DNA of 63,327 nt, filler included, from Nemertoderma westbladi (GCA_032718475.1; 2 parts of 2 records of this genome joined end to end with filler, not necessarily neighbours in it), one strand, 5' to 3'. Positions 1,133 to 58,301 are shown, counted from the whole stretch's first letter. Translations and numbers: made by a program. Notes: generated from the letters alone by a model not told the origin.

Positions 1133-1242
1133 TTCTATTAATTCTGAGGTGATGGTGATAGAACTGCTTTGTGTTGTCTCTCTCTGTATGCAGATCAGTG
1201 ACAAAAACTTTGTTGGTGAAAAGGCTTTCTTAATTGTGTAGA

Positions 1243-6653: not shown

Positions 6654-6910
6654 TAAATCTGACATTATCTTTGTTCTTGAGGATAATCTTGAGTAGCTCG
6701 AGGTCACACCACATTGCATCCGTACCGTAACTGAACTGAACTGCTGAAATACGAAAAACTGCTCTTAACTTTCGTGATAATTTTAACTGTAACCGTACCG
6801 TAAGTTTGAGTTGGCACCGGTTCTCCGGGTTGCCCTTCAAGCCATTACCCCCTCCTTCGACTAAGAAGATCCCCCAAGATTAAGTCAAGGAATACACACA
6901 ACCTGTAGGA

Positions 6911-31888: not shown

Positions 31889-31988
31889 NNNNNNNNNNNN
31901 NNNNNNNNNNNNNNNNNNNNNNNNNNNNNNNNTTAATTAATTAANNNNNNNNNNNNNNNNNNNNNNNNNNNNNNNNNNNNNNNNNNNN
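31889..31988. other. Assembly gap containing an artificial TTAATTAATTAA linker
   Basis: 100-base N run with an embedded six-frame stop linker. Confidence 0.95.
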
Positions 31989-34900: not shown

Positions 34901-37900
34901 ACAGCGCACAGTTAGGTTTTATGTTACTCACTTTACCTTGGGTAACTTGATGCACTCTCGTTTTTTCTTCGGGTTTTCTTCGGTGCATTCTGTTAGGAGA
35001 CTGAGGAGGGGTCTTGGCAACCTGTTCTCTCCTATCGTTGTTTCGAGCCTTGTATTTACTTACGTCCTTTGAGGTTTTGTCAACATAGTAAGATCGGTCT
35101 GTGTCTTTCCCGCTGTCCTCTTCTTGGGAAGCTTGGCTTTCGCCGTCGTCAGTGTAACACACCGGTGTTACTCTTCTCCTAGAAGTGGGTTTCTCACTTA
35201 CCTTATTTTCCGATGTTTTCTCTCTGGACTGCTTGATGAGTTGTAGTTTTACTTCACCATCTAAGAAAGACATGAGATCAGCCATGGTAGGACTTCGTCG
35301 TTGTTGTTCATTCATGTACAACACTTTCTTGTCCCAGCGTGTACATACTCCACCCTTTGGTAAAGTAGAGACTACGGCTCCAATAACCATGGAACTCTGA
35401 TATTCATGCGACTTACCTAACCAGTCCAGTTGTCTACAGATCTCTTGAATTTCATCGGAAAACTCTATAATCCCGCTACTAAGGAAGTGTCGGGGGGCTA
35501 CTAATTTTGCATACAAATACTTAGCTATGTTATCCTTGTTACCATACCTGATGTTTAATGTATCCCAAACTTGTCTTAATCCATCTGGATGTCCAATAAA
35601 CTTTAACGCCATTAACTTGGGAGGTCCTTCCAAGCACTTGATGAGGAATCTAAGTTTCTCTCCGTTAGATAGTACAGAGTTCTGTATGCTATCTTTGTAA
35701 TATTCGTTGAAAGGTAACCATTTCATCTCATCTCCATTGAATTTGACGATCTCTCCCACTTTGACCGCTTGGCGGGCTTCTGTTCTAGCCATCTGACGCG
35801 TAAAGCTTTCTTGGGCCATCGTGTTATTTAATATCGAATTATCGGTATATAAATTTCTCGGATTATTATCAGGTCTATAGGGAATATCATTAGCAACAGG
35901 CGTATAATCACCCTTAATAGGGTTTGCTATAGGAGTTTCTACTTCACTAGCAGTATAGATGCGTGTAGGCTCCACACCTTGCGCATGTAGTACTTCAGAC
36001 CTAACAGGTTGACACAATGTTACAGGGGGTATTGGTATGCCCTTTTGGATATTGACTAATTTGTCGCGTTCTAGTGCGATACTTTGCTGCACTTCTTGCA
36101 ACTCTGCTCTACCTTCCCTCACTGTTCCCTTAAGTTGGTGGACAGTCTCCTGCATCTGTCCTAGCAGGAGATTCATCCCCCGCCGTCCCTCTTCTACCCA
36201 CTCAACCGCCGAAGCGGGAGTCGCCAACATAGTAGCGGGCTGACGCGGGACGACGGGAGACAAATCTTTGATTTCTCTCTCTGCTATCCGGACAGGGATA
36301 TTCTCTTGGACTGTTCTACCGGGTACAGGCAGTGTAGTACTATGTAAAGGGAATTTAGAGTTAAGCTCTGGAAGTACAGGGGTCTCTAACACAGAAGTGA
36401 CTTTGGGAACGACAGGCCTAATTATTTCAGGCTCATCAACTATTGTAGGGAGTCTTTTGACCTTAATACTTTGGGCTGTAGGTTCTATACTACTCAAGTC
36501 TGTGCTAGCTAGCTGTCTTCTAACAGCTGGGGGCAAATCAGGCAATTTGCGACGGTAAGATGTTTTTCTACGCCTACTTAGATGAGATCTATTTCCTCCG
36601 CCTTCAGGATCGGTGGTCTCGCCTTCCTCCGAGGATGTGTATCCCTGGCGCTTGGGAGTAGATTTTCTCATCATCTGCATTTGATTAGCAGTAAACTGTT
36701 TATTTATACTGTCTTGCGTCTCTTGCAGATTTTCCAACTTCAGTTGGATAGTCTCCTCAGAAGCTCTCTGTTCTGCTTCTGCCACTGCTGCTTTTCTTTC
36801 TGCTTCTGCTTCTGCCGCCTTTCTTTCGGCTTCTGCTTCTGCCGCTTTTCTTTCGGCTTCTGCTTCTGCCGCCTTTCTTTCGGCTTCTGCTTCTGCCGCT
36901 TTTCTTTCGGCTTCTGCTTCTGCCGCCGCTGCTGCTGCCACCTTTCTTTTCTCTATCCATTCTTTCTTTACTTGTTCTTCTCGGACTCTAGTGAGGCGGA
37001 GTTTTTCATCAAATTCAGCTTGGTTTGCAGCTAACATTTCGGCATTGATTGAGTCCAACACAAGCTTGGTTCCTTCACTATTAGGGGAAAGTCCAGACAG
37101 CCGTCTCCTCAACTCTTCGTCTCCTAGGAATCGCTGATAGTCGGACAGATAAATGTCGATAGCGTCTCTAGTTCGCGGTTTCTCGGCGGTCTCTTCGCTT
37201 TCCGCTTGAGAAAGGGTGACATCAGTTTGTTCTTCATAGGTTGATCTCTCAGCCAGCTGGGATTTCCACTGGGCCGTTTCCTGTACTTTGAGACCTACCC
37301 GATGGAACCAAGTTTTGACAGCAACCTGCAGCGACGTGTCCTGTCTTCTTTTGGAAGTTTCCTCAAAGGCTGATAGGATTAGTCGAATGCGTAGGGTTCT
37401 TTCGCGTACTTGGTATAGCAGCTCTTCCTGCTCTTGAGGTCCTTGGGGTTGTCGAAACAGTTGTTCTTCCAATCGCTCCAAGGAGCCGAAGAATCCCTGC
37501 ACATATCCTGCTGCCGACCTCTTCCAAACAGCTGGATCCATTGTATCTTTAGCCACTCCCATCCTGTGTATATCTTCCCAAGTAGCCTCGGACAGATCCA
37601 ACGGGAGTCCGAGTCCGGGAAAGTTCCATTGTGACTCGACAATAGACATCAATTCTTCCCTGGCGTATCCCGCATAATTATCTTGGGTCGCTCGCTTATT
37701 TCTCGCCCAGTCGGCTTGATGTTCCTCCACCGCAATGAATATAGTAGTTAGCACTGCAGCAGGAAGGGTGAGAAGGGGGTCCGAGTAGACAGTAGCAGCC
37801 ATCTGCACTCCGTGTTCAGGGGTCAGCTCTACAGTATCCGAACTACTGGAGCTATCGGGTCGCTGGGAAGTAGGTTCTTGACCAAGATGTTGCTGCGATA

Positions 37901-38114
37901 GGACAACTGCCTCTTGGTTCCGTTTGACCTGTGCCCGAGTGCCTATGATGGACCTATGGTGGATTAGCCTAGGGTCTGATACTACTGGAGGGATGACCTT
38001 TCTTGCAGTAGGAGGTGAGCTGAACTCCTTTCTTAATCGCTCCACACTCCTATCTGTGTCACAGATGGTTGTATCGATCAGACTGTCTGACAGGTTTTGC
38101 TGAGTGTCAGACAT
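31989..38114 (-). CDS. BEL/Pao LTR retrotransposon gag-pol polyprotein (runs into the gap before integrase)
   Basis: Single open frame with gag (KFNGD...W..F), three Cys/His knuckles (CALC..H....C, CYNC....H....C, CAKC...HH.LLH), protease LLDSGS, RT (RVVFDGS, DIEGMFLQV, YMDD) and RNase H (HVFGDAS, PRAELKAA, WTD, NPADIASRG). Confidence 0.97.
36775..36935 (-). repeat. 27-bp coding repeat (AAEAEAERK) x ~5 in gag
   Basis: Visible in both DNA and translation. Confidence 0.95.
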
Positions 38115-38249
38115 GTTTAGCTATACAGTTGAATGTCTACTACTATAGTTTCAGTTAAAGCAAGTCTAGTAATTCAGTATGACCGCAAGCCTAGCGATTT
38201 ATTACCGATACCGTTACTCGGTGTAACGTGATATATATACAATATATTA

Positions 38250-38502
38250 GAATACCGGTATGCTTATAGTATATATATAAGTATTATTACAGACTAGATT
38301 TGTCACAGAGTACCGGTATATAATTTTAGCACAAATATATATAAATATATAATAGGCCTATCGTGAATACCGGTATACAGCTGACACTTATAGTATATAT
38401 AAGTATAATTATTACAGACTAGAATTAATTACAGAGTACCGGTATGATTTCAGCTCAAATTTATAGAGATAAATATAATAAGCCTATGGTAAATACCGGT
38501 AT
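38250..38502. repeat. ~120-bp tandem repeat in the BEL 5' leader
   Basis: Recurring AATACCGGTAT...ACAGACTAGA...GAGTACCGGTAT blocks. Confidence 0.75.
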
Positions 38503-39479
38503 GTCAATTATCAATTATTTTAGAATAATTGAATTTCTGAATATTTTAGGGTTACTTGGTTACTTTAACTTACTTTATTACCGTTATTTAAGCAGTAGTC
38601 CAACTGATATTGAGACCTAGTTGTTGTATGGCAGGCCTACTATTTATAAATCGTTTGAGTTGATTTATAATAGATATATACCCGTTTAAAAGGGGTTTTG
38701 TCAATATTTGAAATAAATGTTATTATTTCTGGGGGAGTCACTACACAGAAGCTGTGCGCTCTCAGTGAAGTGTTACTTATTGAGACACTAAAACAGATAA
38801 TTCTAATTTACCTAAGTTACTTAATACTACAAATTACTTACGATACGGGTGAGATTAATTCTCTAATTAAACACAACAAAATATTACGTACGAATTTTTT
38901 AGGGTAATTTTACAGGAAGTCTACAAACCAGCCTAACAAAGGGTTAGATTTCTGGTTATTACAACGGACAGGGTACTACGGTATTTGAAATAATAAGTAG
39001 TAGTAAATATATTGCACTGTCCAGATAGGAAAATACCACCGCCTGACGACCTATAACCGTATCGCTATAGGTACTACGTTATGTATCACGGAGTGTTCCT
39101 ACCCAGAAGTTAATAGAGCTAACGAATGTGCCTATCAACCACTTTACAACACAAATATACTGCCTACACCCTAATTACTCTCGGAAAGCACTGTACACTA
39201 AACCCTAAATTAGGTACAAGTACTGGTACAACAAATAATCAGTAGTTAAATATACTTGAACAGTTAAAAGAACCACGGCATCTGCTGGAGTGACCAGAGC
39301 ACAAAGTCACCAGTCTTGTCCTACGCCAAGCAGCCCGTGTAGTACCGGGGTTAATTTAACTATAACGGTATGTATAACAAGCACAATTACTGTAGGGATA
39401 AACTTGGGGACATGAATGTTGCGAATAATCGCATAAACTCTGAATAATAAATATTACGCTACCCGTACAGAATACTCAA

Positions 39480-39886
39480 ACAAAAATACAAACCAAACGC
39501 TGGCAGACTACCACCAAGCCTAAATAAACTACCGTACGCGTAGATTCTGAAATAGTTAGTTAGTATGCGTTCTAACACGGTAGTACGACTTATTCTTTAA
39601 GAGGGGATTGACCTTACAGCTATGGCTGCCCCAACTTACTAACGGCACTTTATCAGACAAACTCCACACACGCAGCAATCTCTTCAGACCTAATAATAGC
39701 TAGACAACAATCCAGCCTACAAAATATCTGAGTAATAACTATTACGGTACCTGAACAAACTACACAAACAAACACAGGCCAAAATGCTGGCAGACCACGA
39801 TCAAGCCTAAATAAACTACAGTATATGCAGATTCTGAAATTGTTAGTTAGTATGCGTTCTAACACGGTAGTACGACTTATTCTTTA
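39480..39886. repeat. Direct repeat pair (~115 bp; 39480-39598 and 39768-39886)
   Basis: Shared GCTGGCAGAC...GTTAGTTAGTATGCGTTCTAACACGGTAGTACGACTTATTCTTTA. Confidence 0.85.
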
Positions 39887-41429
39887 TTATTCTTTATTCT
39901 TTATTCTATATTACAGTTTATCTATGTCGGGAAGGGAGGGGGGGGGGGGGGGGGTATAGTCCCTATAGCCCTCCTTCGGGACTAATCAATGACTTGCTGC
40001 TGTACTCTTGGCCGAACGGATATTTAACTACACAATGGATACAGCGTGTTAGGCAGTAAGTAAGTGGGCTGCTAATAATTAATAGCCCATATTTATTTTT
40101 AAGACTATAATAATAATTGAACACCCAATTATCTACCCCTGTACTCCTCTTACAGCAAACAGTGTTTGTATAGTAAGCAGAATGTCAATGTGTATAGGAA
40201 ATGAACATTTCCCCTGGATAACATACATTTAATTAGTCGCCCAGTTTTAGCCCCTGTCTAATTATTAATTAAACTAATAAATGAAAATAAACTAATATTT
40301 ATTCTATTAATAATTACAGAAACATTGTGATTTACTCTTTATTACTCAAAATATGTTCAATAGTAATAAATACAGTGTGTGATCCTACATTTATTTGTAA
40401 GATCAATACGATTTTAAATTATTCCAGAGCCCACCAGCAGCCCACGCACGTTAACTATGTGCGGATGTGTGTGGATTTCATCAAAAATAGAGTTTATATT
40501 TTAATTATTATTTACCTCAGAGGCTGGCAATACAAGGTAGGAGTGTTATCTTCCATCGATGACCATACATCAATGAACTGAACACTACGCAAACTTTAGG
40601 ACGAGTTTAGTCCATTCTATACAACTTAATGATTGACAGGTTAGAGAAGAAGTGGACCAGCACAAGCATAGTCTGAGTCAGTCCACCTTTCAGACATCAA
40701 AGTAAGCGCCGATTTCCAAGTAAATTCCTAATGAAATCCAAGTCAAATCCTAAGTGCCTCCAAGTCTGGAATTTGGGCTAAATTTCATTTCCAATTAAAT
40801 CCTATCTCCAATAGTAGTGAATCAGTGAATTGGATCCTAATAGGATTCTATTAGGATCCAATACGACGTTATTTGAAAGCGGTACTGTATTTGTGTTTAT
40901 TAGCCTTCAAAAATTAGTCAACAGAACGACCAACAGACGGAAGGATGGACAACGGTCGGAAGAAATACATAAACTACATATGCAATACTGTAAGCCTAAC
41001 TGGTAAGCAGTATTGCTGTATTGCAGAATACTGAATTCATGATTAGTGTTGTCCGGACATTTTGTGTGTTGTCCCCAAACGTTTGACTGTTTTCCTGCGA
41101 CTTGCCGGCGATATGCGGAGATGAAACTTGGCATAATTACTTTTAGGACTGCGATCTACTGTTATTCACATTCTTTGTGGCCATTTTTGATAATCGTCAA
41201 CCATTTTTTGACTGTGGCTTGACTGTCGCCACCATTTTTAGGTGTTGTCACAAATTCCACCTATCCTACAAAGGGCATATCTAGATCTAGGTTATTTCAC
41301 ATTGACTTTTATTGTATTGATTAGAATAACCTGCAACTCAACTTTCCTGATAATTAACATTTAATTAACTGATAATAAACATTATCGGCCAAGCCATTCT
41401 CATCGGTATAGCGTTTACATCATAGCATT

Positions 41430-42000
41430 TAACCCTATTTGGTCGGGGGGGGGGGGGGGGGGGGGGGGTGATTTATTTTAGAAATTTTTTGTACTGTAAA
41501 TCATCTGTATCTTTGTGTCATGTTTGTTGGGAAAACCGAAAATTCGTGACTTTTCCTAAAATTTAGTGTGCAATCCAACAGCGAAAACGCCGTTTACATG
41601 GCTATGTTAAGTTTTCGTGCGGTGGATCCTTTCGGGTATTTTTTGTGCTAAAATTTTCAAATATTTGTTTGGCTCACTAAAATAAATTTATTTGCGGCAT
41701 ATAGCGGTTTTTTGGATGCTAATCACGATTATAGAACAAAAATATAAAATTCGAGTACATTTTTGGTAATTTTGAATGTGCCATCTGGGGCACGAAAAAA
41801 CAACTAGTATAAATATGATATGATAATGAAAAATCACGACGAAATCAAATTGATTTTATGACCATATAGGGATGCTGATCACGAATATGACAATCAAAAA
41901 TATCGTATTATCCAACCAAATATTCCAAATTTAAAATTCCAAATATTAGCGGTGAATTTTGTTTGACAACAAAATTCAGGATAAGGATAAACCTCGGAAT
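41430..42000 (+). mobile_element. Possible piggyBac-type non-autonomous element, one end only
   Basis: TTAA|CCCT terminus followed by poly-G; no matching AGGG|TTAA found. Confidence 0.3.
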
Positions 42001-42062
42001 TTCGACAACAGCAATTTCCCAAAGGAGCCAACGGTTACCACGAGACGGTCAACTACGAGGAG

Positions 42063-43270
42063 TGTTCGCGCTTTTCAAGACCTTTAGCAGTTTAACCTGC
42101 CAAAATTTATATGTCTTTTAGTTAATTAACACACCTTTAGCATACGACAATATTTTATGCTAATAAACAAAACATTAACCGAAGCCAGCCCATGCGCGAT
42201 CATTCACCCGATGGATACACCCGGGAGGCTGAATTCGGATGCTTAAATTTTATTATTGCAGTGTAAGATTGCAGTGTAAACCTACTGTATTATTCGATTG
42301 ATCACTCATATGTAATTTCTGACAGATATTATTAACTTTCGGGAAATATTAACAGTTCCTTTAGGACGTGGCGCTCTATCTATTTAAACAGAGCTAGGAC
42401 TTATACTAAACGCAACGATAATGCTTATGATTAAATTATTAGGCGCATTCTTTAGGAAATGCTTTGTTACCAATCACAATCATGCACACTATTCTGCCGA
42501 CCGTCAGTAAATTTGATCACACATAAAGAGAACAGCAATTGACTCATGTAGTGTCTGCTAAATAACATTAGATTCAATACACACCACATTGATATAAATC
42601 GCAATTGTTATGTATAGCCTGTCTCTCTAACCTGTAGTGTATCAAGAAAATTGGGAATTTTGGGTGATTTATCAGTATTCTCCAAAGGGCAATATTTCAT
42701 CAACAAATCGATACAATTAATAACTGACGGTAAATAACAGTACAAACAATATAATTAATAAGTAAAGTTCGTGCCGTGTGCCGATTAAACTAGTGACTAG
42801 TGACTAGTTAAGTCAAGACTAGCTAGGTAACAGTTATACTTTCTATAATTTAAGCAGTTTTACTAGAGTTCTTCCCAAAAGCCGGTGTTCTGGCGAAAAA
42901 TGGGAACACAACAACAGAATCATATGACTACTACTCTATACGAGGATACCAACTACCCTTATTCCACGAAGCTCCCGTCCAACACAGAGGATGAGCATAC
43001 AGATAGGAAATTCAGTTCAGTAGCTCTGGGATAGGTCAAAATCAACGCCAACTCAAATTCTATTGGCCGATACGGAAAGCAGGGCTGAGGCAACCTTCCT
43101 AAGCTGGTTGGCCGATCGAACAGAACCCAGATCCCTTCGCACAGCAAATCAGCCAATCAGCCGGTAGCTTGCACTATTCTAGCTAGATATCCCTTTTTAG
43201 AGTATTCAGGGACTGGGGGGAACTGGTTAGCAAAGCAAACGAATCAGTTATCCCACAAAAGCTTTTACAA
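42063..43270 (-). mobile_element. Diverged homologue of the LTR end at 13414-14645
   Basis: Colinear similarity from TGTTCGCGCTTT to CAAAAGCTTTTACA (e.g. GGAAATATTAACAGTTCCTTTAGGACGTGGCGCTCTA is shared). Confidence 0.85.
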
Positions 43271-43816
43271 GGAGGGACCACCTATAAACTAGACAATCCG
43301 AGTCTACCTTCCGTAGGGCAACCTCCACAAACTCACAGAGAAATAGACACCAGGATCAGGTACATGAACAAAGGGCCTGAGTGATCAACGCACGTATGGA
43401 CAACGAATACGTGCAGTTATAACTCGAAAGAGATAAGCTTGCGCAAGAAATCATCAATCAGCATAGGACGATCGACATCGAGGAACCCGAAAGAGAAACT
43501 GAACTCGAAATCGAGAAACGCAAATGAGAACACGCTAAAGTTAACAAGATACTGATATGGGAGGCAGAACAACGAACCCGGGAAATAATGACCGAAAAGG
43601 TCATGATCCAAAAGAAATGCAAGGATGATGCCAAGTTGGACGATTATGAAACTGCTCTCCTTGATCGAGATCTTCTGATCGAGGAAGGGAAGACAGGTAA
43701 AGGCTTACAGTACATGTGAGTGATTCCATATTTATTGGAAATTTCCAATACTTGAATCGTATCGCGTGTGAAAGTGACAAAATAAGAAGGAGGCAATAAA
43801 CAGTCATCGAACATTT

Positions 43817-45743
43817 TTACAAATTTGGAAAAATTACGTCACCTCTAGCACTGTAACTGTCACCGGTACTTTTGAAGCACATTGGTGAACAGGTGAACGT
43901 AGATATCGTAGTTGTCCAATTGGTGATAAAAAATAATGTGGTTAATGGTCTGGTTTCCACTGATAATGGCATTTGCAAATATCCATTACGTGTATCCAAT
44001 TTTGTGAAAAATTTATTGCCTGTGCCAATTTAGGTTGTTGCTTCTATTGGTGTAGGTGCTGGATATAAAGGTGAGTGTCTTTGGGTCGGCACAAATACAA
44101 ATTGTTTTATCTGGTTAGCGAACTGTTACCATCGGATGGTACCAAATGGCAGGTTCATCGGCGCTTACCAGTTCTATAACGCCAGTGTTAATCATAGAGT
44201 TTGTTGGCGAAGACAAACGGGAATTGTGCGTGCAGTCCTAATAGCAGTGGGTGTGTAATTTCCTTTCAAGTGTGTATATCCATTGGAGTACCAGCTGAAC
44301 CACACATTGGTTGTAGTTCTTCAGAGTCATTAAATACTGTGTTAAAATAGTGTGTAAGTTTATCCCAAATTGCCAATTTCTCAATTTCAGAAGAATTTTG
44401 TGGTATTGAATTGTTAAAATCCATGGTTTGTATCTCTGTATATATTGGCAAGCAAGTTGGTAACGTTAGTGAAGGGTAATCTTAATTCAATTATTTAGTT
44501 ACAGATGCAACAAATGAGTTATTATTATAAATTGGTTCGGGGAAATTGGATAAGATTATTCCTAATTTGCAACAGGTGTCACTACAGTATCTAGGATATA
44601 CCATTGACACCTTCATAAATTGTTTAGACAGTTGTTGCATGCTTAGTACAGTAAATAATTTAATGTCTAAAAGTTATTTGACCAATCTTGCTTATAATAC
44701 CACCATTGATATTTTTGTATGGTTTTTCGTTAGATTGGATAATTGGTTTAATTTCAGCCGAAATACCAAGATGGTGATCAAAATCATAACCTGCAACTGT
44801 CTTGTCAGTTCCAGTTCGAAACCTAAGATGAAAAGAAAAGCTAATAATTCATCTTCATCGATATCTCCGACTGCCCGTCTATTTGCTATAAGTTTTGCTT
44901 TAAATACCCCAGGTGAAATGCCATTCTGTGATGTGGTCAGGAAATTTTTCCAAGCAGTTGATTTTCTGCATAACCAGTACAGGTACTGTATGATGCCAAG
45001 ACTAAGACTATGACACCTGTACAAGTTTTTGGATCAATGGCTGGTGAATTTGTGCAGATTAAATTTAAAAAATCCGGTATCATGGGCAATGAGCCATCTA
45101 TGATGATTCAGGAATATTTGATGCCATCGCATAATTCCTCCCATAGTATTCGCCATTCTGTGAAAAACATGAAGTCAGTGTCCTTGGTAAGACGTTGTGT
45201 GGTGGGGACATCACGTATATTTGTTGGTAAGGGCGCGTTAGCGGTAGGGGTGGTATTGTGAATTTTCTAATTTCTTGATTTGAGAATTGCATCAGCGTCG
45301 TATTGTTTCCTAGCAATACCTCCATGTATTTCATCTTGAATTTCGTCGCTTAAAGCATCTAACTCCTGATGGAGGGCGATGACCTCCTTTTCGTACCGTG
45401 CATAACGTTCACGGCCATCTTCATCCACTGTTGTGATAGTTGCTTCATAGTTTTCAGTAACATTGATGAATGCATTGACCAGGGGCTTGATGTTATCGAC
45501 CTCATCATGAAGATATTTGACATGGACTTCGCGACGATGGGCAGAAGTCCATAGGGCTTCCACGGATTGGTGGAGAGATGTAGGCAAAATGCTTTTGTAA
45601 CACGAATTTGTGGTTTGATCCTGGCGTCCTTTGTGACCTTTATATCAGCCATTGTATTTAAGACTGATATTAGTGCTTTAGTATATTAGTCGCTGTTATT
45701 AGTGCTTAGGATTAAAAGAGACGCTTTTACCCACAATGCGCCA
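43817..45743 (-). mobile_element. Decayed Gypsy/Ty3 LTR retrotransposon internal region (PBS, gag, protease region, RT start)
   Basis: ...CACAACA|TGGCGC LTR-end/PBS junction at 45744/45743; gag-like start at 45652; RT motif DTRNGYLQMPLSVETRPLTT; many stops and frameshifts. Confidence 0.7.
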
Positions 45744-46145
45744 TGTTGTGGTTCATCACAGCATTGTTTAGTAAAATGAAATAATATAGTTTAAATAAAC
45801 TACATGTCAATTATTACATTAAAATAAAATGTACATAATATTAAATGTTTTACTTCTAAACTTTTACAAAGAAAAACTCTACAATTATAAAGATACACAT
45901 ATTGTCCTATCACATAGAATCCAGCTGATCGATATAGCTCTCAACAAATCACAAATAACCAAAGTAAAGTACTCTAACCAGATGTCAATAAAAAATAAAC
46001 AATAACCATCACCAATATAATAACGTATAGTTCGTTGTCTTTCATATTATAATGTCCAATGTGATATAATCAACTTGATAGAGTTCAATATCAATTATGG
46101 AATCACTATAATCCGGTAACGAACTGTATGAGTTACAGACTGTAA

Positions 46146-46850
46146 CTACTCTACTGGAACGGTTTCCATTTCGCTGTAGGGTTCTATGATTCTTTCGCGT
46201 TTTACCATGAACGGTTTCCAGCCATCAGAACCGTCTCCTGTGGAATACTTCTTACGTTCCATCACAAGACACGGACCCAAATGTTTCTCCTCTAGCAGTT
46301 CGTTGCAACAACCTCTTCCACCCTCTGGATAATACTTATGTTGTTTAGCCTTGCAGTCACCGATGTGTAGAAAAATCTTTTCACCACTGTTACGATATTC
46401 CTTGTGGAACAATGCCGGGGAATCACATGGTAAAGTATCTGGTGGCTGCCCCACAGGGTATGTAGGTTCAACAATCACAATGTTGTTTGTGTTATCAACA
46501 CCCATACATCTCATGCGATCAGTTTCGAATGTCAGTAGCGAATAAAATCGTTTTGACAAAGAACCCCTTTTTCTATGTTCATATATGTATTGAGTTATTA
46601 TCGTTCCCGACTTACAAGCTGCCTCGTTCTCATAACATTGGAAGGTTATGTCGTTATTGTTATTGTCGCTATCGCACTCCAAGTATTGTGCGTTATAACC
46701 TTTTTTAACAATTTTCGTTTCACTTTTACATTTACTTTCGATATAAATTCTTATTTTATCTCCCTTTCTTCCTGTCCATTTGCATTCATCATCTGTCTCT
46801 TCAACGACACCCGGAGAACAACATAGGCATTTTTTGAGAAATTTCGCCAT
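46146..46850 (-). CDS. Intronless 234-aa protein, putative IL-1/IL-18-family beta-trefoil cytokine
   Basis: Intact ORF (an upstream in-frame ATG at 46907 lies in the transposon end). No signal peptide. Ordered motifs EETD, QYLECD, TIITQYIYE, LLTFE, CMGVDN..IVIVE, PPDTL, ALFHKE, KIF and FMV parallel IL-18 LESD, QVLFID, TIFIISMYK, VTISV, LSCENKIISFKE, PPDNI, IIFFQR, MQF and FTV. Confidence 0.65.
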   Translation of the reverse strand: MAKFLKKCLCCSPGVVEETDDECKWTGRKGDKIRIYIESKCKSETKIVKKGYNAQYLECDSDNNNNDITFQCYENEAACKSGTIITQYIYEHRKRGSLSKRFYSLLTFETDRMRCMGVDNTNNIVIVEPTYPVGQPPDTLPCDSPALFHKEYRNSGEKIFLHIGDCKAKQHKYYPEGGRGCCNELLEEKHLGPCLVMERKKYSTGDGSDGWKPFMVKRERIIEPYSEMETVPVE

Positions 46851-47019
46851 TAATAAATTATTTTTAACACTATACAGCGCCCATGTGAAGTTTCCCAGGA
46901 TTCCCATTCCCAGCGGAAAAAAAACCCATTAGAAAGGAATTTGACATTCATGTGTTGCGCGAAGTCCTCTTTTTTTTTTGAGAAGGGATGGTCTGTTGAT
47001 CACTGGGTCGGACGGTGAG

Positions 47020-48160
47020 TGAGAAGGTGGGCGGGTGGGTGGTAAGGTGGGTGGGTGGAAGGGAATGTGGGAAGGTTGATGGGAATGTGGGAAGATAGGA
47101 ATGGGGGAATGTGGGAAGATGGGAAAATGGGTGGATGGGAATGTCTGAATGTTGGTAGATGTAAATGTGGGTAGATGGGTATGTGGGAAGGTGGATGGGA
47201 ATGTGGGAAGATGATAATGTGGGAAGGTGGATTGGAATGTGGGAAGGTGGGTGGGGATATAGGAAGATGGGAATGTGGATGGGAATTTGGGAAGATGATA
47301 GTGAGGGAAGGTGGATGGGAAGGTGGGAAGTTGGGTGGAATTGTAGGAAGATGGGAATGTGGGAAGGTGAATTGGAATGTGGCAATATGGGAATGTGGGA
47401 AGATGGGAATGTGGAAGGTGGATGGTTATATGGGAAGAAGAGAATGTGGGAAGGGGGATGGGAATGTATGAAGGTGGGTGGGAATGTAGGAAGATGGGAA
47501 TGTGGGAAGATGGGAATATGGGAAGGTGGATGGGAATTTGGGAAGATGATAATGTGGTAAGGTGGATGGGAATGTGGATGGGAATTTGGGAAGATGATAG
47601 TGAGGGAAGGTGGATGGGAATGTGGGAAGTTGGGTGGAATTGTAGGAAGATGGGAATGTGGGAAGGTGAATTGGAATGTGGCAATATGGGAATGCGGGAA
47701 CATGGGAATGTGGAAGGTGGATGGTTATGTGGGAAGAAGAGAATGTGGGAAGGGGGATGGGAATGTATGAAGGTGGGTGGGAATGTAGGAAGATGGGAAT
47801 GTGGGAAGATGGGAATGAGGGGAGATGGGAATGTGGGAAGGTGGATGGAAATGTGGGAATATGGGAATGTGGGAAGATGGAGGGAAATGTAGGAATATGG
47901 GAATTGGGAAGGTGGATGGGAATGTGGGAAGGTAGGTGGGAATGTAGGAAGAATGGAATGTGGTAATAAGATTGGAATGTGGGAAGGTGGATGGGAATGT
48001 GGGAAGATGGGAATGTGGAAAGGTGGGTGGCAATATTGGAATGTTGGAAGAGTTGGTGAGAATGTGGGAAGGTGGATGGGATTGTGGGAAGGTTGATGTG
48101 AATGTGGGAAGATTGATGAAAATTTTGGAAGGTGGTTGGATGGGAATGTGGGAAGGTGGC
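47020..48160 (+). repeat. Degenerate (GGGAATGT/GGGAAGAT)n satellite
   Basis: Direct inspection. Confidence 0.97.
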
Positions 48161-48164
48161 CAGA

Positions 48165-51115
48165 TGGTTATTTATTGTTTTGGTTAGAAAAGACAGCCTC
48201 GGTAACATGCACCTCACCCTCAATTGGTAGGTAGCAACATCGTTTATTGTTTTGGTTAGAAAAGCTCGCCTATGTAACCTGCTCCTTTCCCTCATTTGGT
48301 AGGGATCAACAACGTTTATTGTTTTGGTTAGAATAGAACAATCATGTACCTTGATCCTTTCCTACAATTGATGGGTAACAAAATCGTTTTTGTTTTGGTT
48401 AGAAAATGGCGCCCCTGAAATCTTCTCCTTTCCCTCCATTTATAGGTAACAACAACTTATATTGTTTTTGTTAGAAAAGCGAAACCATGTAACCTAGAAC
48501 AACACAGTTTATTGTTTTGGTTATGAGGTGTGTTAAAATGCCTAGGCAATCATTATATACTTAGTAGGTAATCGTCTGAATATTTAGTAAGTAAGAAACG
48601 GATCCGGATTTTTGACGATTTTCCCAGATAAATGATATTAGTGCTATTCGGAAGAAAGATTGAAGTAATACAGTATTTCTGTATGTATTTGGTATTTACG
48701 TAAAAAATCTTAATTGTTATAATAGGAAATTGGGGAAATGATAAGGATTAGCGGTCATTTTAAGTCATATTTGGGACAGAGGAACATTTGGGTGCATTTA
48801 CATTTACTTGGGTACAATATTTTTATTCATAGCTAACACAATAATGTGTACAGTGTATGTATATTCAATAAGAATACCACCGCAATCGTATTTGGATAGT
48901 AAAACGTATAGCCCCAGTAATCCCTTTGTAAGAATTCATCATTACGTAATAGCTTGTTTATAGTGTTAGATTATTGAGTATAGGTCTATTAGAATAGATC
49001 ACTTTCATTACCATATATGGTAATAATTCTCTGAGAAAGGAGCTAGGAGGGCTATATTCCAGCTCACTCATTAGCTTAGCCATTTCGGTTGCTCCAATGG
49101 CAGGAGTTTTTGCTTGACCATTGGTGACTCATTCTTCTTGTTATGTTTTGTACAGTAGATGGAAGTTGTCATGTGATTTTGTTTTGTTGTTGAATTAAGC
49201 AGTAATCTTACTTAGTTTGTTATGATTTTGCTTTGCTTTTGTACTTTCGCTATAATTAATACAGTAATTTGTACCGTGAAAGACTGACCGATGCATGCTA
49301 TTATTATGTAATCAGTTTCCGCTAACTTAACTGCGTTATTTGCTTACTGCCTTTGCAGTACTCTACACCGGCTTACCGCTAGAATGGCACTCTGCGACAT
49401 GGAGTAGACGGCGTAGGAAGTGCCTACTGGGAGCGCGTTTGAGAGCAGGTGGACAAGATGACAACCTGTGGGGTTTCTATTAAGTAAAGGGAAGTGCGGG
49501 CATGTTTTAGGGATCACTATATGGTGGGGCGGATGCCGTGGGGGTTCTGCTTTACACTTGGGATTTGGTGAAAGTTTTAAGTCGACTGACAGGCCGGAAA
49601 CACCTTTCGTATTTTTAGTCTTAATCCAATATTAATGTTTAATCCAATATTAATGTTTAATCCTATATTTCTAAATCAAATTTAGATAGCCATCTTTGCC
49701 ATTTTAGGTAACCAATTTGTAAATTTTTAAATTTTTAACATTTGTAAATAAAAACATAAGTTAATAAGAACATAAGTTAAGTGATTGAAATAAAACATGT
49801 CAGTACTATTTTTTGCCGACAAAATATTAGCTACAACGTTATTCATTTGTTTATTTTGTTTAGTCGAGTGCAGGAAGGTTGGACAGTATATAGACATACA
49901 TTGGCACTCGGAACGCTAGGTAATCCGGTCCTATTGACAGATGTTTAATCAAGGTTTAGCACATTCGCTATTCAGAATTATTAGATATTTTCGGGTAAAA
50001 TTATAAAATTAAATTAGCCCGCGCCCCAGTGCGCACCCTGAATTACAGAATGTTTGTCGACTGATAAGTCTTTACTACTTGAGTAATAAAATTGATTTTC
50101 CCCTTCAGGAGAAAGTAGCTGGTGAGGTTACACATTTGCCACAGTTAGCAACAGCTGTACGCTCGAGTATAGGACGATTTTCGATTTTTAGCAGCGGTTG
50201 GCTGACCTTGGTGAGTGGACCTGCTTTATTCCCTGAAATGGTAACAACATCGATTATTGTTTTGGTTTGGAAATCATGCCGCTGTAACCTGCTACTTTCC
50301 CTCAATGGGTAGGTAAAAACAACATTTATTGTTTTGGTTAGAAAAGCCCGCCACTGTAACATGCTACTTCCCTCAATTTGTAAGTCACAACATCGTTTAT
50401 TGTTTTGGTTCGAAAATGATGCCGCTGTAACCAGCTCCTTTCCTTAAATTGTTGTAACATGCGTTTATTGATTCCCACATTCACATTCAACTTCCCACAT
50501 TCACATCTTCCCACTTTCACATCCACCTTCTCACATTCCCATCTTCCCATTTATCTTCCCTCATTCCCATCCACCTTCCCATCTCCCCACATTCCCATTG
50601 GTTGGTAACAACATCGTTTATTGTTTTGGTTAGAAAAGCCCGCATCTGTAACCTTATCCTTTCCCTCAATTGGGATGTAAAAACAACGTTTATTGTTTTC
50701 GTTAGCAAAATACTGCCGCTGCAACCTGCTCCTATCCTTCAATTGGTAGGTACGAACAACGTTTATTGTTTTGGTTAGAAAAGCGCTAATCATGTAACTG
50801 CTCCCTTCCTACAATTGGTGGGTAAAAACATCGTTTATTATTATTATTATAAATATTTATTTCAACATAACTAATATTGTCATAGCTCTACTGTACGTAC
50901 TCCACTAAATATATCAATGAAGGACAAGATTAATCTATAGCACAAAATATTAGTTAATACCAAGTCGACGTAGTGCACATATTATTATTGTTTTGGTTAG
51001 AAAAGTAACCTGTAACCTGCTCCTTTACCTCCATTTATATGTAACAACTTATATTGTTTGGTTAGAAAAGCAAAACCATGTAACCTGCTCAACACATTAA
51101 CGTTTGGTTAGAAAA
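48165..51115 (+). repeat. ~72-bp tandem repeats (TTTATTGTTTTGGTTAGAAAAG core) interrupted by unrelated inserts at ~48525-50222 and ~50840-50982
   Basis: Core motif at 48171, 48243 and 48315, and again from ~50250. Confidence 0.85.
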
Positions 51116-53640
51116 ATCCCAATTCCATCTTCCCAGATTCCCATCCACCTTCCCATCCATCTTCCCTCATTCCCATCTACCTTCCCACATCCCTTCCCAG
51201 ATTCCCATCTTCCTACATTCCCATTTTCCCACATTCCCATCTTCCGATAATCCCATCCACATTCCCATATTTCTATATTCCCATCCACCTTTCCATCTTC
51301 CCACATTCCCATCTTCCTACAATCCCACCTCTCTTCCCATATTCCCACATTCCCATCTCCCTACATTACCATTTTCCTACATTCCATCTTTCTACATTCC
51401 CATCTTCGCACATTCTCATCCACCTTCCCACATTTACACATATCAATATTCTCACATTCTCATCTTCCTATATTCCCATCCACATTCCCATATTCCCATC
51501 TTCCCATCCACCTTCCTATCTTCCCATCTTCCTACAATCCCATCTCTCTTCCCATATTCCCACATTCCAATCTTCCTACATTCCTACCCATCTTCCCACA
51601 TTCCCATCTCCCTATAATCCCATCCACCTTCCCACATTTACACATATCAATATTCTCACATTCTCATCTTCCTATATTCCCATCCACATTCCCATATTCC
51701 TATCTTCCCATCCACCTTCCCACATTCCCATCTTCCTACAATCCCACCTCTCTTCCAATATTCCCACATTCCCATCTTCCTACATTCCCATCTTCATACA
51801 TTCCCATCTTCCTACATTCCCACCTACCTTCCCACATTTACAAATATCCATATTCTCACATTCCTATCTCCCTACATTCCTACCCACCTTCACACATTCC
51901 TATCTTCCTACATTCCCATTTTCCTACATTCCCACCTTCCTACATTCCCATTTTCCTACATTCCCATCTTCCCACATTTCCATCTTCCTACAGTCCTACC
52001 CACATTCGCACATTCCCATCTTCCCACATTCCCATCTTCCTACCTTCCGACATTCCCACCTACCTTCCCACATTCCCATCCACCTTCCCACATTCCCATC
52101 CCTCCAACATTCCCATTTTCCCACATTCCTAACTTTCTATATTCCCAACCACATTCCCACATTCCCATCTTCCTACATTCCCATCATCCTACATTCCCAC
52201 CTAACTTCCCATATTCCCATCCACCTTCCAATCCATCTTCCCACATTCCCATCTACTATCCCGCATCCCTTCCCAGATTTCTATCTTCATACATTCCCAT
52301 CTTCCCACATTCCCCTCCACCTTCACACATTCCCATCTTCCCACATTCTCACTTACCTTCGCACATTTCCATCCACCTTCCCACATTCACATCTTTTCAT
52401 ATTCCCATCTTCCTACATTCCCATACACCTTCCCACATTCCCACCCACCTTCACATCTTTCCACATTACCATCCACCTTCCCACATTCCCACCCACCTTC
52501 CCATCTTCCTACATACCCATCTTTCCACATTCCCATATTTATACATTTCCATCCACCTTCCCACATTACCATCTTCCTACATTCCCATCTTCATACATTC
52601 CCATCCACCTTCCCGCATTCCCATCTTCCTACATTCCCTCCCACATTACCATCTACCAACATTCCCATATTCATACATTCCCATCCACCTTCCAATCCAT
52701 CTTCCCACATTCCCATCTACCTTCCCGCATCCCTTCCCAGATTTCTATCTTCCTACATTCCCATCTTCCCACATTCCCATCCACCTTCACACATTCCCAT
52801 CTTCCCACATTCTCTCCTACCTTCGCGAAATCCCATCCACCTCCCCGCATTCCAATCTTCTCAAATTCCTATCTTCCTACATTCCCACCTATCTTCGCAT
52901 ATTTCCATCCACCTTCCCACATTCACATCTTTTCATATTCCCATCTTCATACATTCCCATCCAACTTCCCACATTCCCACCCATCTTCCCATCTTTCCAC
53001 ATTACCATCCACCTTCCCACCCACCTTCCCCATCTTCCTACATACCCATCTTTCCACATTCCCATATTTATACATTTCCATCCACCTTCCCACATTACCA
53101 TCTTCCTACATTCCCATCTTCCTACATTTCCTCCCACCTTCCCACATTCCCATCTTCCTACATTCCCATTTTCCCACATTCCTAACTTTCTATATTCCCT
53201 CCCACCTTCCCACATTCCCATCTTCCTACATTCCCTCCCACATTACCATCTTCATACATTCCCAACCACCTTCCCACATTCCCATCTTCCTACATTCCAT
53301 CCCACCTTCCCACATTCCCACACCTTCGTGCAATCCCACCCACCTTCCCACCCACCTTCCCATCTTTCCACATTACCATCCACCTTCCCACCCACCTTCC
53401 CATCTTCCTACATACCCATCTTTCCACATTCCCATCTTTATACATTTCCATCCACCTTCCTACATTCCCATCTTCCTACATTCCCATCTTCGCACATTCC
53501 CATCCATCCACCCACCTTCCCATCTTCCTACATTCCCATCTTCCCACATTCCCATCTTCCTACATTCCCACCGACCTACCCACCAACCCACCCACCACCG
53601 ACCGACATACCGACAACCGACTGACCGACCGACCAACCAA
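51116..53640 (-). repeat. Degenerate (ACATTCCC/ATCTTCCC)n satellite, inverse of 47020-48160
   Basis: Direct inspection; a small block also lies at 50470-50600. Confidence 0.97.
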
Positions 53641-53727
53641 CCGGCGCCCGAAGTTGACTCATTTTGGCTTTCCTGGGCACTCTGGGATTGTTCACATGGG
53701 CCCTACAAATACAACTACCGGTAGAAT

Positions 53728-54694
53728 TGATTATTTATTTAATACACGATAACATACATTAAAATATATATAGTATAACCAATACAGTAGAATTAAGAAA
53801 TACTAAATATAGGTAATCGACAATTTTTCGAGGGAGATCGCCGCCCAGGCTCGAGGCACTTAAAGGGGCGATTTAAATGATTTAAAAGAAGAGAAATTAA
53901 GTGTAAATATATGTGTACATACAGAGTATAGTGATAAATATTGTGATAAAAATAATTTCATTGGTTATTACTTAATAAAATAGGTAGGAATGAAATAAAA
54001 ATAACAAACACAATCACACAACGGATACAAAACCTTAAAAAAAAAATAGTTTAAAAAATAATATAAATAAGTAAAAAGTTAAACGGCTATTTGCACCAAT
54101 GGTCGACCGAACAGTGTGACTTGAAATCGAACGTTAATAATTTACGAGAAAAAATTCGTAGGTTTTTAGCATCAACAATATCTTGCGATAAAGAATTCCA
54201 GAATGGAACAGTGCGGTAGTTAAAAGAGTTCTTACAAAGTTGTAGTCTGCAATACGGAATATGAAGTTTATAGCTGTGTCCACGTAGCCCTCTTACTGGC
54301 GCACGTGAAAAGTAGTTACTAAACGTAAGGTCAACAAGGCCGTGAAAAATACGGTACACCATTTTCAAGTCGAAAATAATTCTCCTAACCTCCAAGGGTT
54401 GTAGAGACAGGCAGGTTAGACGGTCACAATATGAAACATAAGTTAATTTGCACCGACGATACAATCTGCGTGTAAAATAGTGTTGAACTCGTTCGACTAA
54501 ATTTATACCATACTTAGTGAAGGGCGACCAAACAGGGGTACGGTACTCTAAAACCGGTCTAACAATAGACTTGTAGGCCGTTAAAAGTGCCGATTTATTA
54601 CACGATTTAATGTTACGAAATATTGGTTCACGGTCCTTGACATAAGTGTTGGTTCACGGTCCTTGACATAAGTGACCATTATTACCGTAATGTG

Positions 54695-54751
<57 letters not shown>

Positions 54752-56290
54752 AGAGCGATATCTCAGTTATTTATTAATCAATCGAAACAAAATTTGGACA
54801 AAAGTTAGATATAGGGATGGCGAAGGCTCATACAAAAAATTGGGTGTCGAGATGGTATTTGTGCGATGTGAGCGCTATATTTGCGTGTTTTCGCATGGTT
54901 TAGGAAAAAGCTATCTTGTCATAGGGAACGCAATGAATGATTCTGATATTTGGCATGGAGGTACCTGAATTATTTCTAAATCGATTAACGGAGGCCGATT
55001 TTTAAATTTGGACCTATATTATGACCTAATTGAAGATTTAATTAAGGTAATTAATTAGCACTGCTAGTACTGTCTGATTGTCTGCCTGTAGTAGGCATAC
55101 CGGACCGGTACTACCGGACCACTGTAGGCCTATCTACCTATCTTCATACTGTCATAGGTCAGTACAGCAGTAGGTCCTAGCCTAGCCCTAGCAGTAAATA
55201 TAATATTTCGCCATGTTCGCAGGCGATTTCGCACTGACTACCGGTAGGCCTATGCAGCTATGCTATGAGATTAACCGTCCAGTCGTTCAGATGCATATGG
55301 TACCGGTACTGGAACGGGTTACGGTTTAATCCTGCATTTGTCAATTACGACAATACCGGTACGACTTTGAGTACCGCTGTACCGGTACGCAGTAGCCTAC
55401 CGTTACCGGCAGGCGTAGGCGGTAGACCTACGGTGCGATGGTAGCCAGCCGGTAGGTGGTAGGCTTACCGTACCGGTATAAATGTTGGCGGATGGCGGGA
55501 TGACGTCGTTTGGCGCGTAATTACTTACCGGTTGCCGGTAGACGCCTACCCAACTCGTAACTGGTGGTCGTGGTCGTGGTGGGATGAGCATGAGGTCGCC
55601 TACGATGGGAACAAGTGAAAAGGAAACATAGGCCTACCCGAATGCCGAATGAAAACGTATTATTATTGTACTGATTAAGTAGGAGGACCGTGAACCCTCC
55701 AGGCTTGCCAGCTTGTCATATTTATTATCCTATAAGCTTTAGCAACTTGCTGCTTACAATAATTATTAAACTTCAAATCAGCACTAACAATAATACCAAG
55801 GTCTTTGCAGAAATCTTCGCACTTAATTACATTACCGTTTAAAATATAATTAAAATTACTGTTCGATGCGCCAACATGTATAACAGTGCATTTATGAGCT
55901 GCAACGTCTAGCTGCCACTCATTTGCCCATGTCTCTAACAATTTGAGGGCGTTGGCTAAAGAGTCACATTCGGTGGTGGGTGCGTAGAGTTTAACATCAT
56001 CAGCAAAAAGTTTAACATCAATAGGTGAAAGCAATTCAGGTAAGTCGTTTATAAATAGTAAAAAAAGAACAGGACCTAAAACACTCCCCTGGACTGTACC
56101 TGATAAAACAGCACAATAATCTGAAAAAGTGTTACCGATTAAAATACGATGCTTTCTATTTGTTAAAAATGCTTTAAGCCATAACAATAAATCACCTGTA
56201 AAGCCGTAACTTTCTAATTTAGCAAACAATTTCGAAGTGACTACCGAATCGAACGCTTTGGCGTAATCAATATAAATATAAATATAAACA
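53728..56290 (-). mobile_element. 5'-truncated CR1-like LINE (RT and C-terminus), interrupted
   Basis: IDYAKAFDSV, GTVQGSVLGPVLF, FADD, KDLGI; resumes IFRN...IVRPVLEY...LRGHSYKL across the insertion; AATAAATAA-type tail. Confidence 0.9.
54624..55716 (+). mobile_element. Helentron-associated (HINE/DINE-1-like) element
   Basis: Subterminal IR GGTTCACGGTCCT/AGGACCGTGAACC (55684-55696), (TG)n near the 5' end, short 3' hairpin and no TSD. Removal restores the LINE frame ...RIINM|IFRN. Confidence 0.75.
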
Positions 56291-58301
56291 ATTACAAATT
56301 GGAGCACTGTATTTTAAAATATTTTAGACAGATTATTTTAGGTTAGGGAATCCTGTATTTATGGAGACGAGAAATAGGTATTGTGCTTACGTCATATGTA
56401 CAATAAGTGCGGTAACTGTACTGTAGTGTTATGATTTCACTACCAGCTTCCCCCAGGGTATTCATATTCTATCATTGAACACGTGATCTTTTGGGATTGT
56501 AAATGTATTGTATTATTGATATTGAATGACTCAGTCAGTACAGCCTCATTTCCCGATGCCCCTGGAATTATGGACTCTACCAGTCAGACACAAACCATAA
56601 TTTTAGCAGTAATTTAACCCTAACTCTAAGTCTTGAGGCTCTAATCTAAGACATTTTGTGGAATTTCAGACATTTAAGTCTTATTAAGTCTCATTTAAGT
56701 CCAGACATACTGTAAGTAATGTCGGCCGCCACTATATTGTAACCTGTGAGGTCCACTAGAACCGTGGAAAAGTCGCGCCTGTAGTCTGGTTCTGGTATGG
56801 TAGTGTGATATCCCATTCTTGTCAGTTCGATTATATTTTCTACACTGCAGCACCAGAGCACTGGGAATATGGCGGTCGGTTGGAACGTAATGCGGGCCAC
56901 TGCCGAGTTCCACATGCCTCACTCAGGTCAGCTTGGAGTGCGATGCCGGTGGGAAATCGAGTCTTACGTCTACGACTGGACGAGTCGACGAGGATTGCGA
57001 TCTGGGTTTAGCGGCGGCCCTGATCCTGGGATCGCCTGGGGTAAATGGTTGAACGTCGGGCAGAGGTGTATCGCAGCGGACACCGGATTACGTTCTCTGC
57101 GACGCGAAAGTGTGAGGAGAATTCGTTGTCAAATTCGGGTCGGAAGCTGCGGGAATTCTACTGTTCTACGGGAATAAACCGCAGCGGCGGGGCGACTACG
57201 GGCGGATACTGACAGACTGGGATGTAATAAATAGAGGTACTACTTCGATCGAGTTTCTCGTATTCTCGATGCTCGAGGCGGATAGAGAGTTGGTCGGGGT
57301 TGGCGGATATACCGATAGCTGATAGCTCCGATCTGTTTATAAGTCCGACGTTGTTAGTCGGGGTGGATAATGTCGTCGGCGACGATAAAATGCGATGGTG
57401 CGTCATGCAGTCATGTCACTCAGAATTTGAGGAAGTCGACATTGACGAAGTAATTAACGCGTAACGCACAATGTTACTTTAAACAGAGAACACAAACTTC
57501 TCTGTTTGTGTTCTCTGTTTTGTGTACCCCCCCCCCCCCCCCCCCCCCCCCCCTCCCCCCGCCTTATGATTTTACACCCATACAGTATAGGCCCATTTAG
57601 ATAGGATATTTGCTGTTATATGATTTCAACCGATTTACTATACTGCTCTCCCTTCATAGGTAGGCCTACTGCATATACTACTGCATATTATATTTTGTAT
57701 TTTGGCCGTCTTTTTTCAAATTTCTGTTATATTTTATTTTTGGTGCTTATTGATTGCAACTGGTGTATTGTTTTGGTTAGAATCAGCCCTTCTGAAATCT
57801 GTGGTGTTAGTGAAATCCTTGTATTCTTCACATGGGGTAACTAATCTTTTCTATATGCGGCCCCTATGATCGATGTCTCCTCCTACTGTACTTTGGTAGC
57901 ACCACCATGGAACCTCACATTTTGGTTCTCTGGTCCATGAAATTGGGCCAATATTATTTTTTGTGCTACTAAACATCGTCTGGGTTGTCTAAGAATAGCC
58001 AAACAAAATATTTTTAGAATTGGTCCCAAAATGGCTCTGTAATGGCCAAAAGTGCCTTTTTGCGCCTTTCTCCACCAATATTTGTCGGAATTTGTCAAAA
58101 TTTAGAAATATAAGTTCAGAAGACCCCTGCATCCAATTCTTCTGAACGTTTTTAGTTGAAAATTTATTGGGACCATTTTATAACAAAAAGGACCCAAAAA
58201 AGGCCATTTGAACATAAAGCCCCCAAAAAAGGGTTTTGATATAAAAAGGCTGAAATCCCGCTACTCTCAGCTAGTTATACCACCTCTACATGTTAAACTG
58301 A

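Follow-up and report, generated by a model that had tools for sequence, protein, structure and literature searches.

A low-copy repeat of Nemertoderma westbladi that carries an intact orphan reading frame and is possibly a retrotransposon long terminal repeat

A 63,327-nt stretch of DNA from Nemertoderma westbladi (GCA_032718475.1), referred to here as the window, contains a 1126-nt unit, read on the minus strand, which recurs in the genome with the same ends and which holds an intact open reading frame (ORF) of 234 codons. The ends of this unit, its copy number and its open frame are real, and the unit is likely to be a mobile-element repeat that carries a passenger gene. The specific reading we favour, with a probability of about 0.4, is that the unit is the 5' long terminal repeat (LTR) of an old and truncated LTR retrotransposon, with the orphan ORF lying in its U3 region. 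The features on which this reading is built, together with those that bear on it, are as follows.

45744..46869, minus strand: low-copy repeat unit of 1126 nt with 5'-TGTT...AACA-3' ends; candidate LTR
46146..46850, minus strand: intact ORF of 234 codons plus TAG, from an ORF scan (stop TAG at 46148-46146)
45744..46145, minus strand: AT-rich trailer of 402 nt, with 26.6% GC against 40.1% in the ORF
45885..45889, minus strand: TATAA, candidate promoter box by motif and position (motif scan), with the inner edge of the 109-nt module ~35 nt downstream
45744..45852, minus strand: terminal 109-nt module, candidate R-U5 (repeat and unique 5' parts of an LTR), found alone in two long contigs
45731..45743, minus strand: TGGCGCATTGTGG, candidate decayed primer-binding site (PBS), directly after the unit
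45359..45652, minus strand: ATG-initiated ORF of 97 codons, starting 92 nt after the unit
43344..45730, minus strand: decayed co-oriented coding remnant, candidate 5' part of gag-pol, from stop asymmetry and codon-position bias
43817..44029, minus strand: reverse transcriptase (RT)-like piece (...FTKLDTRNGYLQMPLSVETRPLTT...), from a sub-threshold RVT_1 match and a PDB alignment

Ends and copies of the unit

On the minus strand, the unit opens with TGTT at 46869 and the ATG of the ORF follows 19 nt further on, at 46850. The ORF is succeeded by ~400 nt of AT-rich trailer that closes at 45744 with ...GAACCACAACA (CACAACA), with TGGCGCATTGTGG, and hence TGGCGC, immediately after it, and a second frame starts at 45652. 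All these landmarks lie where a preliminary description of this DNA had placed them. The unit therefore has the TG...CA ends and short inverted terminal repeat that are characteristic of LTRs, the inverted repeat being 4 nt only.

Contigs from four public DNA runs of the same organism (X1-X4, from three studies) were compared with the window at likeness thresholds of 85% and 80%; those of X4 give no cover over 43402-45813. At the 3' boundary, three contigs (X1 record 3, of 620 nt; X2 record 10; X3 record 18) are ~84% like the window over 45743-45996 and then diverge, while in two long contigs, X2 record 11 (1911 nt) and X3 record 19 (3414 nt), only 45744-45852 matches, and both are unlike the window on either side of it. 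At the 5' boundary, X2 records 15 and 16, X3 record 24 and a loose end in X1 match up to 46870 and then diverge. Across contigs of three studies, other copies cease to resemble the window at points no more than 1 nt from the proposed TG and CA ends. The 1126-bp unit that had been drawn from TGTT to AACA is thus marked by more than a chosen 4-mer, since likeness stops at 45743/45744 and at 46870. As expected of an LTR, the contigs of X1-X3 show genomic repeats of the unit that share its ends.

The summed contig depth from 43400 to ~45700 is that of one contig series (~18-48 in X1-X3). Within the unit it rises to 3-6 times that of 43400-45700, and overlapping contigs differ in their letters, which together imply several copies of the unit. 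X2 record 9 and X3 record 17 run across the junction between the unit and the sequence at its 3' side, with the depth of a single copy. The copies are of unequal likeness: the nearest listed copy of the trailer is ~16% apart (X1 record 3, with 33 differences and 7 gaps in 254 nt), and the trailer copies in general are 80-85% alike, so that their extra depth is seen at the 80% threshold and is absent at 85%, while over spans of 100-160 nt certain copies of the unit reach a likeness of 94-100% to the window (X1 record 7, X3 records 22 and 23, and X2 record 15).

Two further observations concern the body and the upstream edge of the unit. Just past the stop codon, at 46100-46149, depth falls to about that of a single copy, and deeper contigs (X3 record 21, depth 140) depart from the window at 46100 into unlike sequence; the dip and the departures imply that copies differ by a replaced segment between ORF and trailer. 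Upstream, 46878..46922 (minus strand) is a 45-nt piece of a ~30-fold repeat that ends 8 nt before the unit, with a contig depth of 800-1400 against ~30-48. Loose ends lie on both sides of this piece, at 46878 and at 46921-46923, and its continuations vary on both sides, so that it represents the end of another repeat.

The open reading frame and its product

The 234-codon ORF did not arise by chance: in 3000 shuffles of the unit no ORF reached this length, the longest having 156 codons. Its base use also varies with codon position (p = 0.027), unlike that of the trailer, taken as a control (p = 0.36). An in-frame ATG at 46907, which would extend the product to 253 amino acids, lies outside the unit.

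In addition, the frame is kept open in other copies. Four of the 12 listed indels (out of 17) fall in the ORF, namely +3 at 46183, -6 at 46666 and two that occur together in the same contigs, -1 at 46804 and +1 at 46808, and all are net in frame; six fall in the trailer (11, 1, 3, 4, 7 and 6 nt), and four of these six are not multiples of three. In a variant found in X1 and X4 (from a loose end at 46149) the stop is replaced, and six extra codons lead to a TAA. Most of the extra depth over the ORF passes the 85% threshold, and that over the trailer appears at 80% only, which identifies the ORF as the better-kept part. That a frame stays open across copies whose trailers are ~16% apart suggests selection or gene conversion.

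The ORF is predicted to encode a soluble and leaderless protein. It has 14 Cys residues and, by hydropathy, neither a hydrophobic leader nor a membrane span, the top 19-residue Kyte-Doolittle mean being 0.41 from the ATG at 46850 and 1.03 from that at 46907; this signal-peptide check was a simple hydropathy scan rather than a trained predictor, and the protein may yet be secreted without a leader. No family was matched in Pfam at E up to 1 or in PHROGs, and no PDB sequence at E up to 10. Homologues were likewise absent from 5.8 billion clustered proteins (51 candidates, none of which scored) and from 1.84 billion representatives (HMMER, E up to 0.001). Pattern matches to the ORF numbered 104 in metagenome contigs and 11 in viral contigs, none of them related, and an exact 32-nt word gave no match in the metagenome contigs.

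Structure prediction with AlphaFold2, run on the sequence without an alignment, gave no confident fold, the pLDDT being 35.6 over the full length and 40.6 over residues 95-234. The ESM Atlas returned weak neighbours only (0.86-0.88), which bear beta-trefoil-type families, with recognition under the guide value, and the beta-trefoil lead was set aside, as these neighbours are too weak to serve as evidence. The preliminary description had called the ORF cytokine-like and considered it a possible immune cytokine mimic. This label is not borne out, since the protein has no family, homologue or signal peptide: profiles and solved members of the IL-17, IL-1/FGF beta-trefoil, TNF and MIF families gave no match, and the hydropathy scan gave no N-terminal signal peptide such as a secreted cytokine would have.

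The unit as a retrotransposon LTR, and other readings

Several observations argue that the unit may be an LTR, among them TG...CA ends that coincide with the ends of the copies, a TGG exactly at the 3' junction, and a co-oriented coding remnant at the right distance. The TGGCGC that directly follows the last A of the unit matches the complement of what we take to be a tRNA 3' end, ...GCGCCA. Beyond it, a decayed, co-oriented coding region of ~2.4 kb, with a probable RT, appears to start ~90 nt after the unit. When 45743-43344 is divided into bins of 300 nt, one frame has no more than four stops in all eight bins and no more than two in six of them, with up to 13 in another frame, while the two bins past 43344 have 5-8 stops in every frame; codon-position bias over 45000-45743 is marked as well (p = 1.6e-5). 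The RT-like piece lies 1.7 kb downstream of the unit on the same strand, a distance that would fit gag and protease. It aligns to a caulimovirus RT (PDB 8r0s_A, 'Enzymatic polyprotein', E = 1.1) across the motif LD..GY.Q......RPLT, and it contains the sole match to a GY.Q-type motif in 38200-45743. The remnant ends near 43400, where a very-high-copy repeat starts. In keeping with the preliminary description, then, the interior is heavily decayed and the ORF is intact.

If the unit is an LTR, U3 would run from 46869 to about 45856 and hold the ORF, R would begin near 45860 as judged from the TATAA at 45889, and the 109-nt module at 45852-45744 would represent R-U5, the trailer being composed of the end of U3 with R and U5. 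The presence of this module alone in two long contigs, with its inner edge ~35 nt after the TATAA, fits a conserved R-U5 joined to a variable U3. In a complete element, the ORF of the 3' LTR would then be the last gene on transcripts running from the 5' LTR to the 3' R, possibly after splicing. The copy in the window would lie upstream of its own presumed promoter, and would be silent unless read through from outside.

Other observations count against this reading. The window itself holds no second copy of the unit by repeat search, blastn at word size 7 or self-blast, so that two direct copies around an interior are missing from its 63 kb. No target-site duplication (TSD) is found either: the unit is flanked by TATAG on one side and TGGCG on the other, although such differing flanks are as expected for a 5' LTR that has lost its partner. 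The 5' junction at 46870 is bridged by none of the listed contigs, and all contigs over 46766-46870 differ from the window at five places (46804-46836). The fit to the tRNA-end complement extends over 6-7 nt only, with no tRNA gene in the window, and the unit nowhere contains AATAAA or ATTAAA (motif scan). Downstream, the RT-like piece (43820-44029) matches RVT_1 with E = 0.05 and 13.7 bits, under the cut-off of 29.6; no gag or CCHC zinc knuckle follows the candidate PBS (Pfam, motif scan and homologue search), no protease, RNase H or integrase is found in three read-through frames, and the interior is a single contig series at 85% likeness or above.

Other copies add to these objections. The sole one with a listed downstream flank continues as ...AACA T ACAGTATTGTAG..., a sequence that resembles neither a PBS nor this interior. 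In two diverged copies, the common upstream flank has the unit's own 3' end, TGtACCACAACA (11 of 12 nt), 16 nt before the start of the unit, a match whose score was equalled in 5 of 2000 shuffles, and this arrangement looks tandem. The window has no 3' LTR beside which a polypurine tract would be expected; the upstream flank of these same two copies, wherever in an element they may lie, ends in ...TTGTGACTGTATTGTG and is not purine-rich, with no polypurine tract. Finally, the 27 listed substitutions in the ORF (67 further rows of this stretch were not included) comprise 20 non-synonymous and 7 synonymous changes with no stop, a roughly neutral ratio.

Two parts of the preliminary description have to be separated here from the rest. 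The start at 45652, described as gag-like, belongs to the 97-codon ORF, for which we obtained no Pfam family, no homologue (118 candidates among longer proteins) and no language-model match in the Atlas. The name Gypsy, similarly, is left with the sub-threshold RVT_1 and caulimovirus RT matches; Pfam retroelement families were matched neither in three read-through frames (38200-45750; 43344-45743) nor in 37 stop-to-stop pieces, and the RT-like piece gave no homologue (14 candidates), having too few shared words. From this piece, the superfamily of the remnant (Gypsy or another LTR clade) cannot be assigned. As for the placement of the ORF in a 5' LTR, the shared ends and the co-oriented remnant with its RT-like motif speak for it, and the missing pair and TSD, the 6-7 nt of PBS and the unlike flank of another copy do not. 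The expectation that copies would share both boundaries and retain the ORF was borne out in the public contigs, where the four listed ORF indels are net in frame; an LTR pair and a TSD were not found in the 63 kb.

The reading that survives best beside the favoured one, and which we judge somewhat unlikely, is that the unit belongs to a small family of host genes: an orphan gene of one exon, with a short 5' leader and an untranslated 3' trailer, that is partly tandem elsewhere and lies beside old transposable-element debris by chance, the TG...CA ends and the TGG being coincidental. Selection at host level on a multigene family would give just such a pattern, with the ORF as the best-kept part and its indels in frame, and the family would be a small one, at 3-6 times single-copy depth. 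The 3' end of the unit 16 nt upstream of its start in at least two diverged copies points the same way, as the AT-rich trailer, which contains the TATAA, would be the promoter of the next copy if the units were arrayed head to tail; so do the downstream flank of another copy that is not PBS-like and the many unrelated transposable elements of the window (LINEs, a BEL/Pao element and satellites), among which such a gene could come to lie. However, only 19 nt precede the ATG in the shared unit, which would leave a dispersed copy without a promoter of its own, and the contig that leaves the unit at 45743 has no reported joint back into it, unlike a regular tandem array. Furthermore, the substitutions show no purifying selection, and the coincidences would have to be stacked (the ends, the 4-nt inverted repeat, the TGG and the RT-bearing remnant), with a joint chance that we roughly estimate at well below 1%. 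The interior was also considered as a decayed second monomer, and this was rejected, as tblastn of the ORF across the window matched the ORF itself alone.

It is distinctly less probable that the unit is an LTR (solo, or of a younger family) or some other mobile repeat that is not cognate with the adjacent remnant, the two having become neighbours through nesting or rearrangement. The copies that are 94-100% like the window over 100-160 nt could indicate such a younger repeat next to an RT remnant which, with 13.7 bits and no homologue, is heavily decayed and whose interior has a single contig series; 38200-43400, moreover, is a mosaic of a LINE-like piece and the very-high-copy repeat. Yet the conflict of age between an intact ORF and a ruined interior is a weaker argument than it might seem, because the trailer is ~16% from its nearest listed copy, so that the unit is old too, and because relatives of the interior could fall under the 80% threshold. 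A simple insertion would also have left a TSD around the unit, and the TGG lies exactly at the junction.

The least probable of these readings is that LINE machinery made the unit as an mRNA retrocopy, or that the ORF is a frame in some other kind of repeat which died recently or was never translated. In its favour, leader (19 nt), ORF and trailer (402 nt) are arranged as in a mature message, the window abounds in LINEs that have endonuclease and RT, the ORF has a neutral-like substitution ratio and no homologue, and the 12 nt next to the unit in other copies, which may or may not come from one copy, agree between the two sides at 10 of 12 positions. On the other hand, the unit ends in ...CCACAACA with no A run, simple-repeat tail or poly(A) signal, the ORF is too long for chance and stays open in several diverged copies, and shuffles reach the scores of the flank resemblances in 585 of 2000 cases and in 404, 371, 770 and 1549 of 5000, so that these are not significant. 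The unit thus has neither the poly(A) tail nor the copy-specific TSDs of a processed retrogene, and for the earlier suggestion of a host retrogene using the LTR for polyadenylation, likewise, neither a tail nor AATAAA or ATTAAA was found. Shared GGCGC and TGT motifs before and after the unit belong to these non-significant resemblances and were not used to shift its boundaries.

Within the favoured reading of the unit as a 5' LTR, a more specific version appears improbable to us, though it goes furthest: that an invertebrate Gypsy-type retrotransposon family keeps a selected gene for a leaderless, Cys-rich protein in the U3 of its LTRs. In that case each LTR, even a solo one, would amount to a copy of the gene, which would be expressed as the 3'-terminal message of the element, and the family would be a retrotransposon counterpart, independently arisen, of the superantigen gene of mouse mammary tumour virus (MMTV).

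Three observations touch the sequence downstream of the unit. Behind 45584, inside the decayed remnant, every covering contig of X1, X2 and X3 has one base more than the window, either a length difference or an assembly error. The repeat at 43000-43400 has a summed depth of 60,000-250,000 against ~30-48 for single-copy sequence (X1-X3), which corresponds to thousands of copies, and has no Rfam match; nor was any Rfam family matched in 42500-47100. Beyond it, 42063-42746 resembles 13414-14086 at 75%, so that what had been taken for Gypsy interior is, below 43400, LINE-related in part.

Comparison with known systems and other features of the window

LTRs are usually treated as non-coding control regions, and the known exception, to our knowledge, is the sag gene of the retrovirus MMTV, whose LTR is just over 1 kb. 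In MMTV, sag is an ORF in the 3' LTR that encodes a superantigen (PMC2119085, PMC2191119, PMC2119154), and Sag is a type II membrane protein (PMC2191119). The unit described here resembles this system in being a long candidate LTR whose U3 would be mostly filled by one complete ORF, with each LTR a copy, and the placement of sag at the 3' end of viral transcripts is that proposed for the ORF here. Unlike the membrane-bound Sag, the protein of N. westbladi has no hydrophobic span, and no likeness of sequence to sag exists, as no search returned a homologue. Furthermore, MMTV is a retrovirus, whereas the element here would be non-retroviral and Gypsy-like, its LTR status being unproven.

Additional ORFs are also described in LTR retrotransposons outside the retroviruses. 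Retrosat2 of rice has an extra, fast-evolving ORF0 in its interior (PMC3485330), and LTR elements of bdelloid rotifers have additional ORFs (PMC5408684), a paper in which a phrase search gave no mention of an ORF that lies within or reaches into an LTR. Like the unit, these appear to be cases of an additional, lineage-restricted ORF of an LTR retrotransposon beside gag-pol, but as far as these sources describe them the ORFs lie in the interior, whereas the ORF here would be inside the LTR. The titles and abstracts that we searched describe no non-retroviral retrotransposon with an ORF inside its LTR, which is not proof that none is in print.

The orphan multigene families of invertebrates offer a different comparison. 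Like the unit, they are small, single-exon, Cys-rich and taxon-restricted, with conserved coding sequence, diverged flanks and in-frame length variation. The unit differs from them in having 19 nt upstream only, TG...CA ends, and an adjoining PBS-like TGG and decayed RT-bearing remnant. Were it a plain host gene family, the finding would be an ordinary one. If the LTR reading is true, on the other hand, every new insertion would duplicate the gene borne by the LTR, and each solo LTR would retain it, an unusual route by which an element could carry an accessory factor and a host could gain a multigene family.

The remainder of the window is rich in other repeats. ORFs of the long interspersed nuclear element (LINE) type with Exo_endo_phos and RVT_1 domains lie at 10683-13235 (plus strand), 23264-25939 (plus) and 55675-56313 (minus). 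Two inverted duplications were found, one of 428-4592 against 31888-27168 at 88-92% and one of 4581-7436 against 21497-18611 at 96.7%. The same short-period satellite occurs in opposite orientation at 46990-48150 and 51084-53750, with a GC skew of +0.96 in one block and -0.9 in the other; the blocks are bordered inwardly by 72-nt repeats (48145-48513 and 50227-50889), forming a large inverted structure around 48500-50200. Lastly, an uninterrupted frame of 2059 codons at 31941-38120 (minus strand) contains DUF1759 at residues 794-922 (E = 6.5e-12) and the Pao retrotransposon peptidase A17 at residues 1835-1993 (E = 2.8e-36). It meets two runs of N, at 31889-31932 and 31945-31988, and is an apparently intact BEL/Pao gag-pol, with ~790 residues before its gag-like domain.

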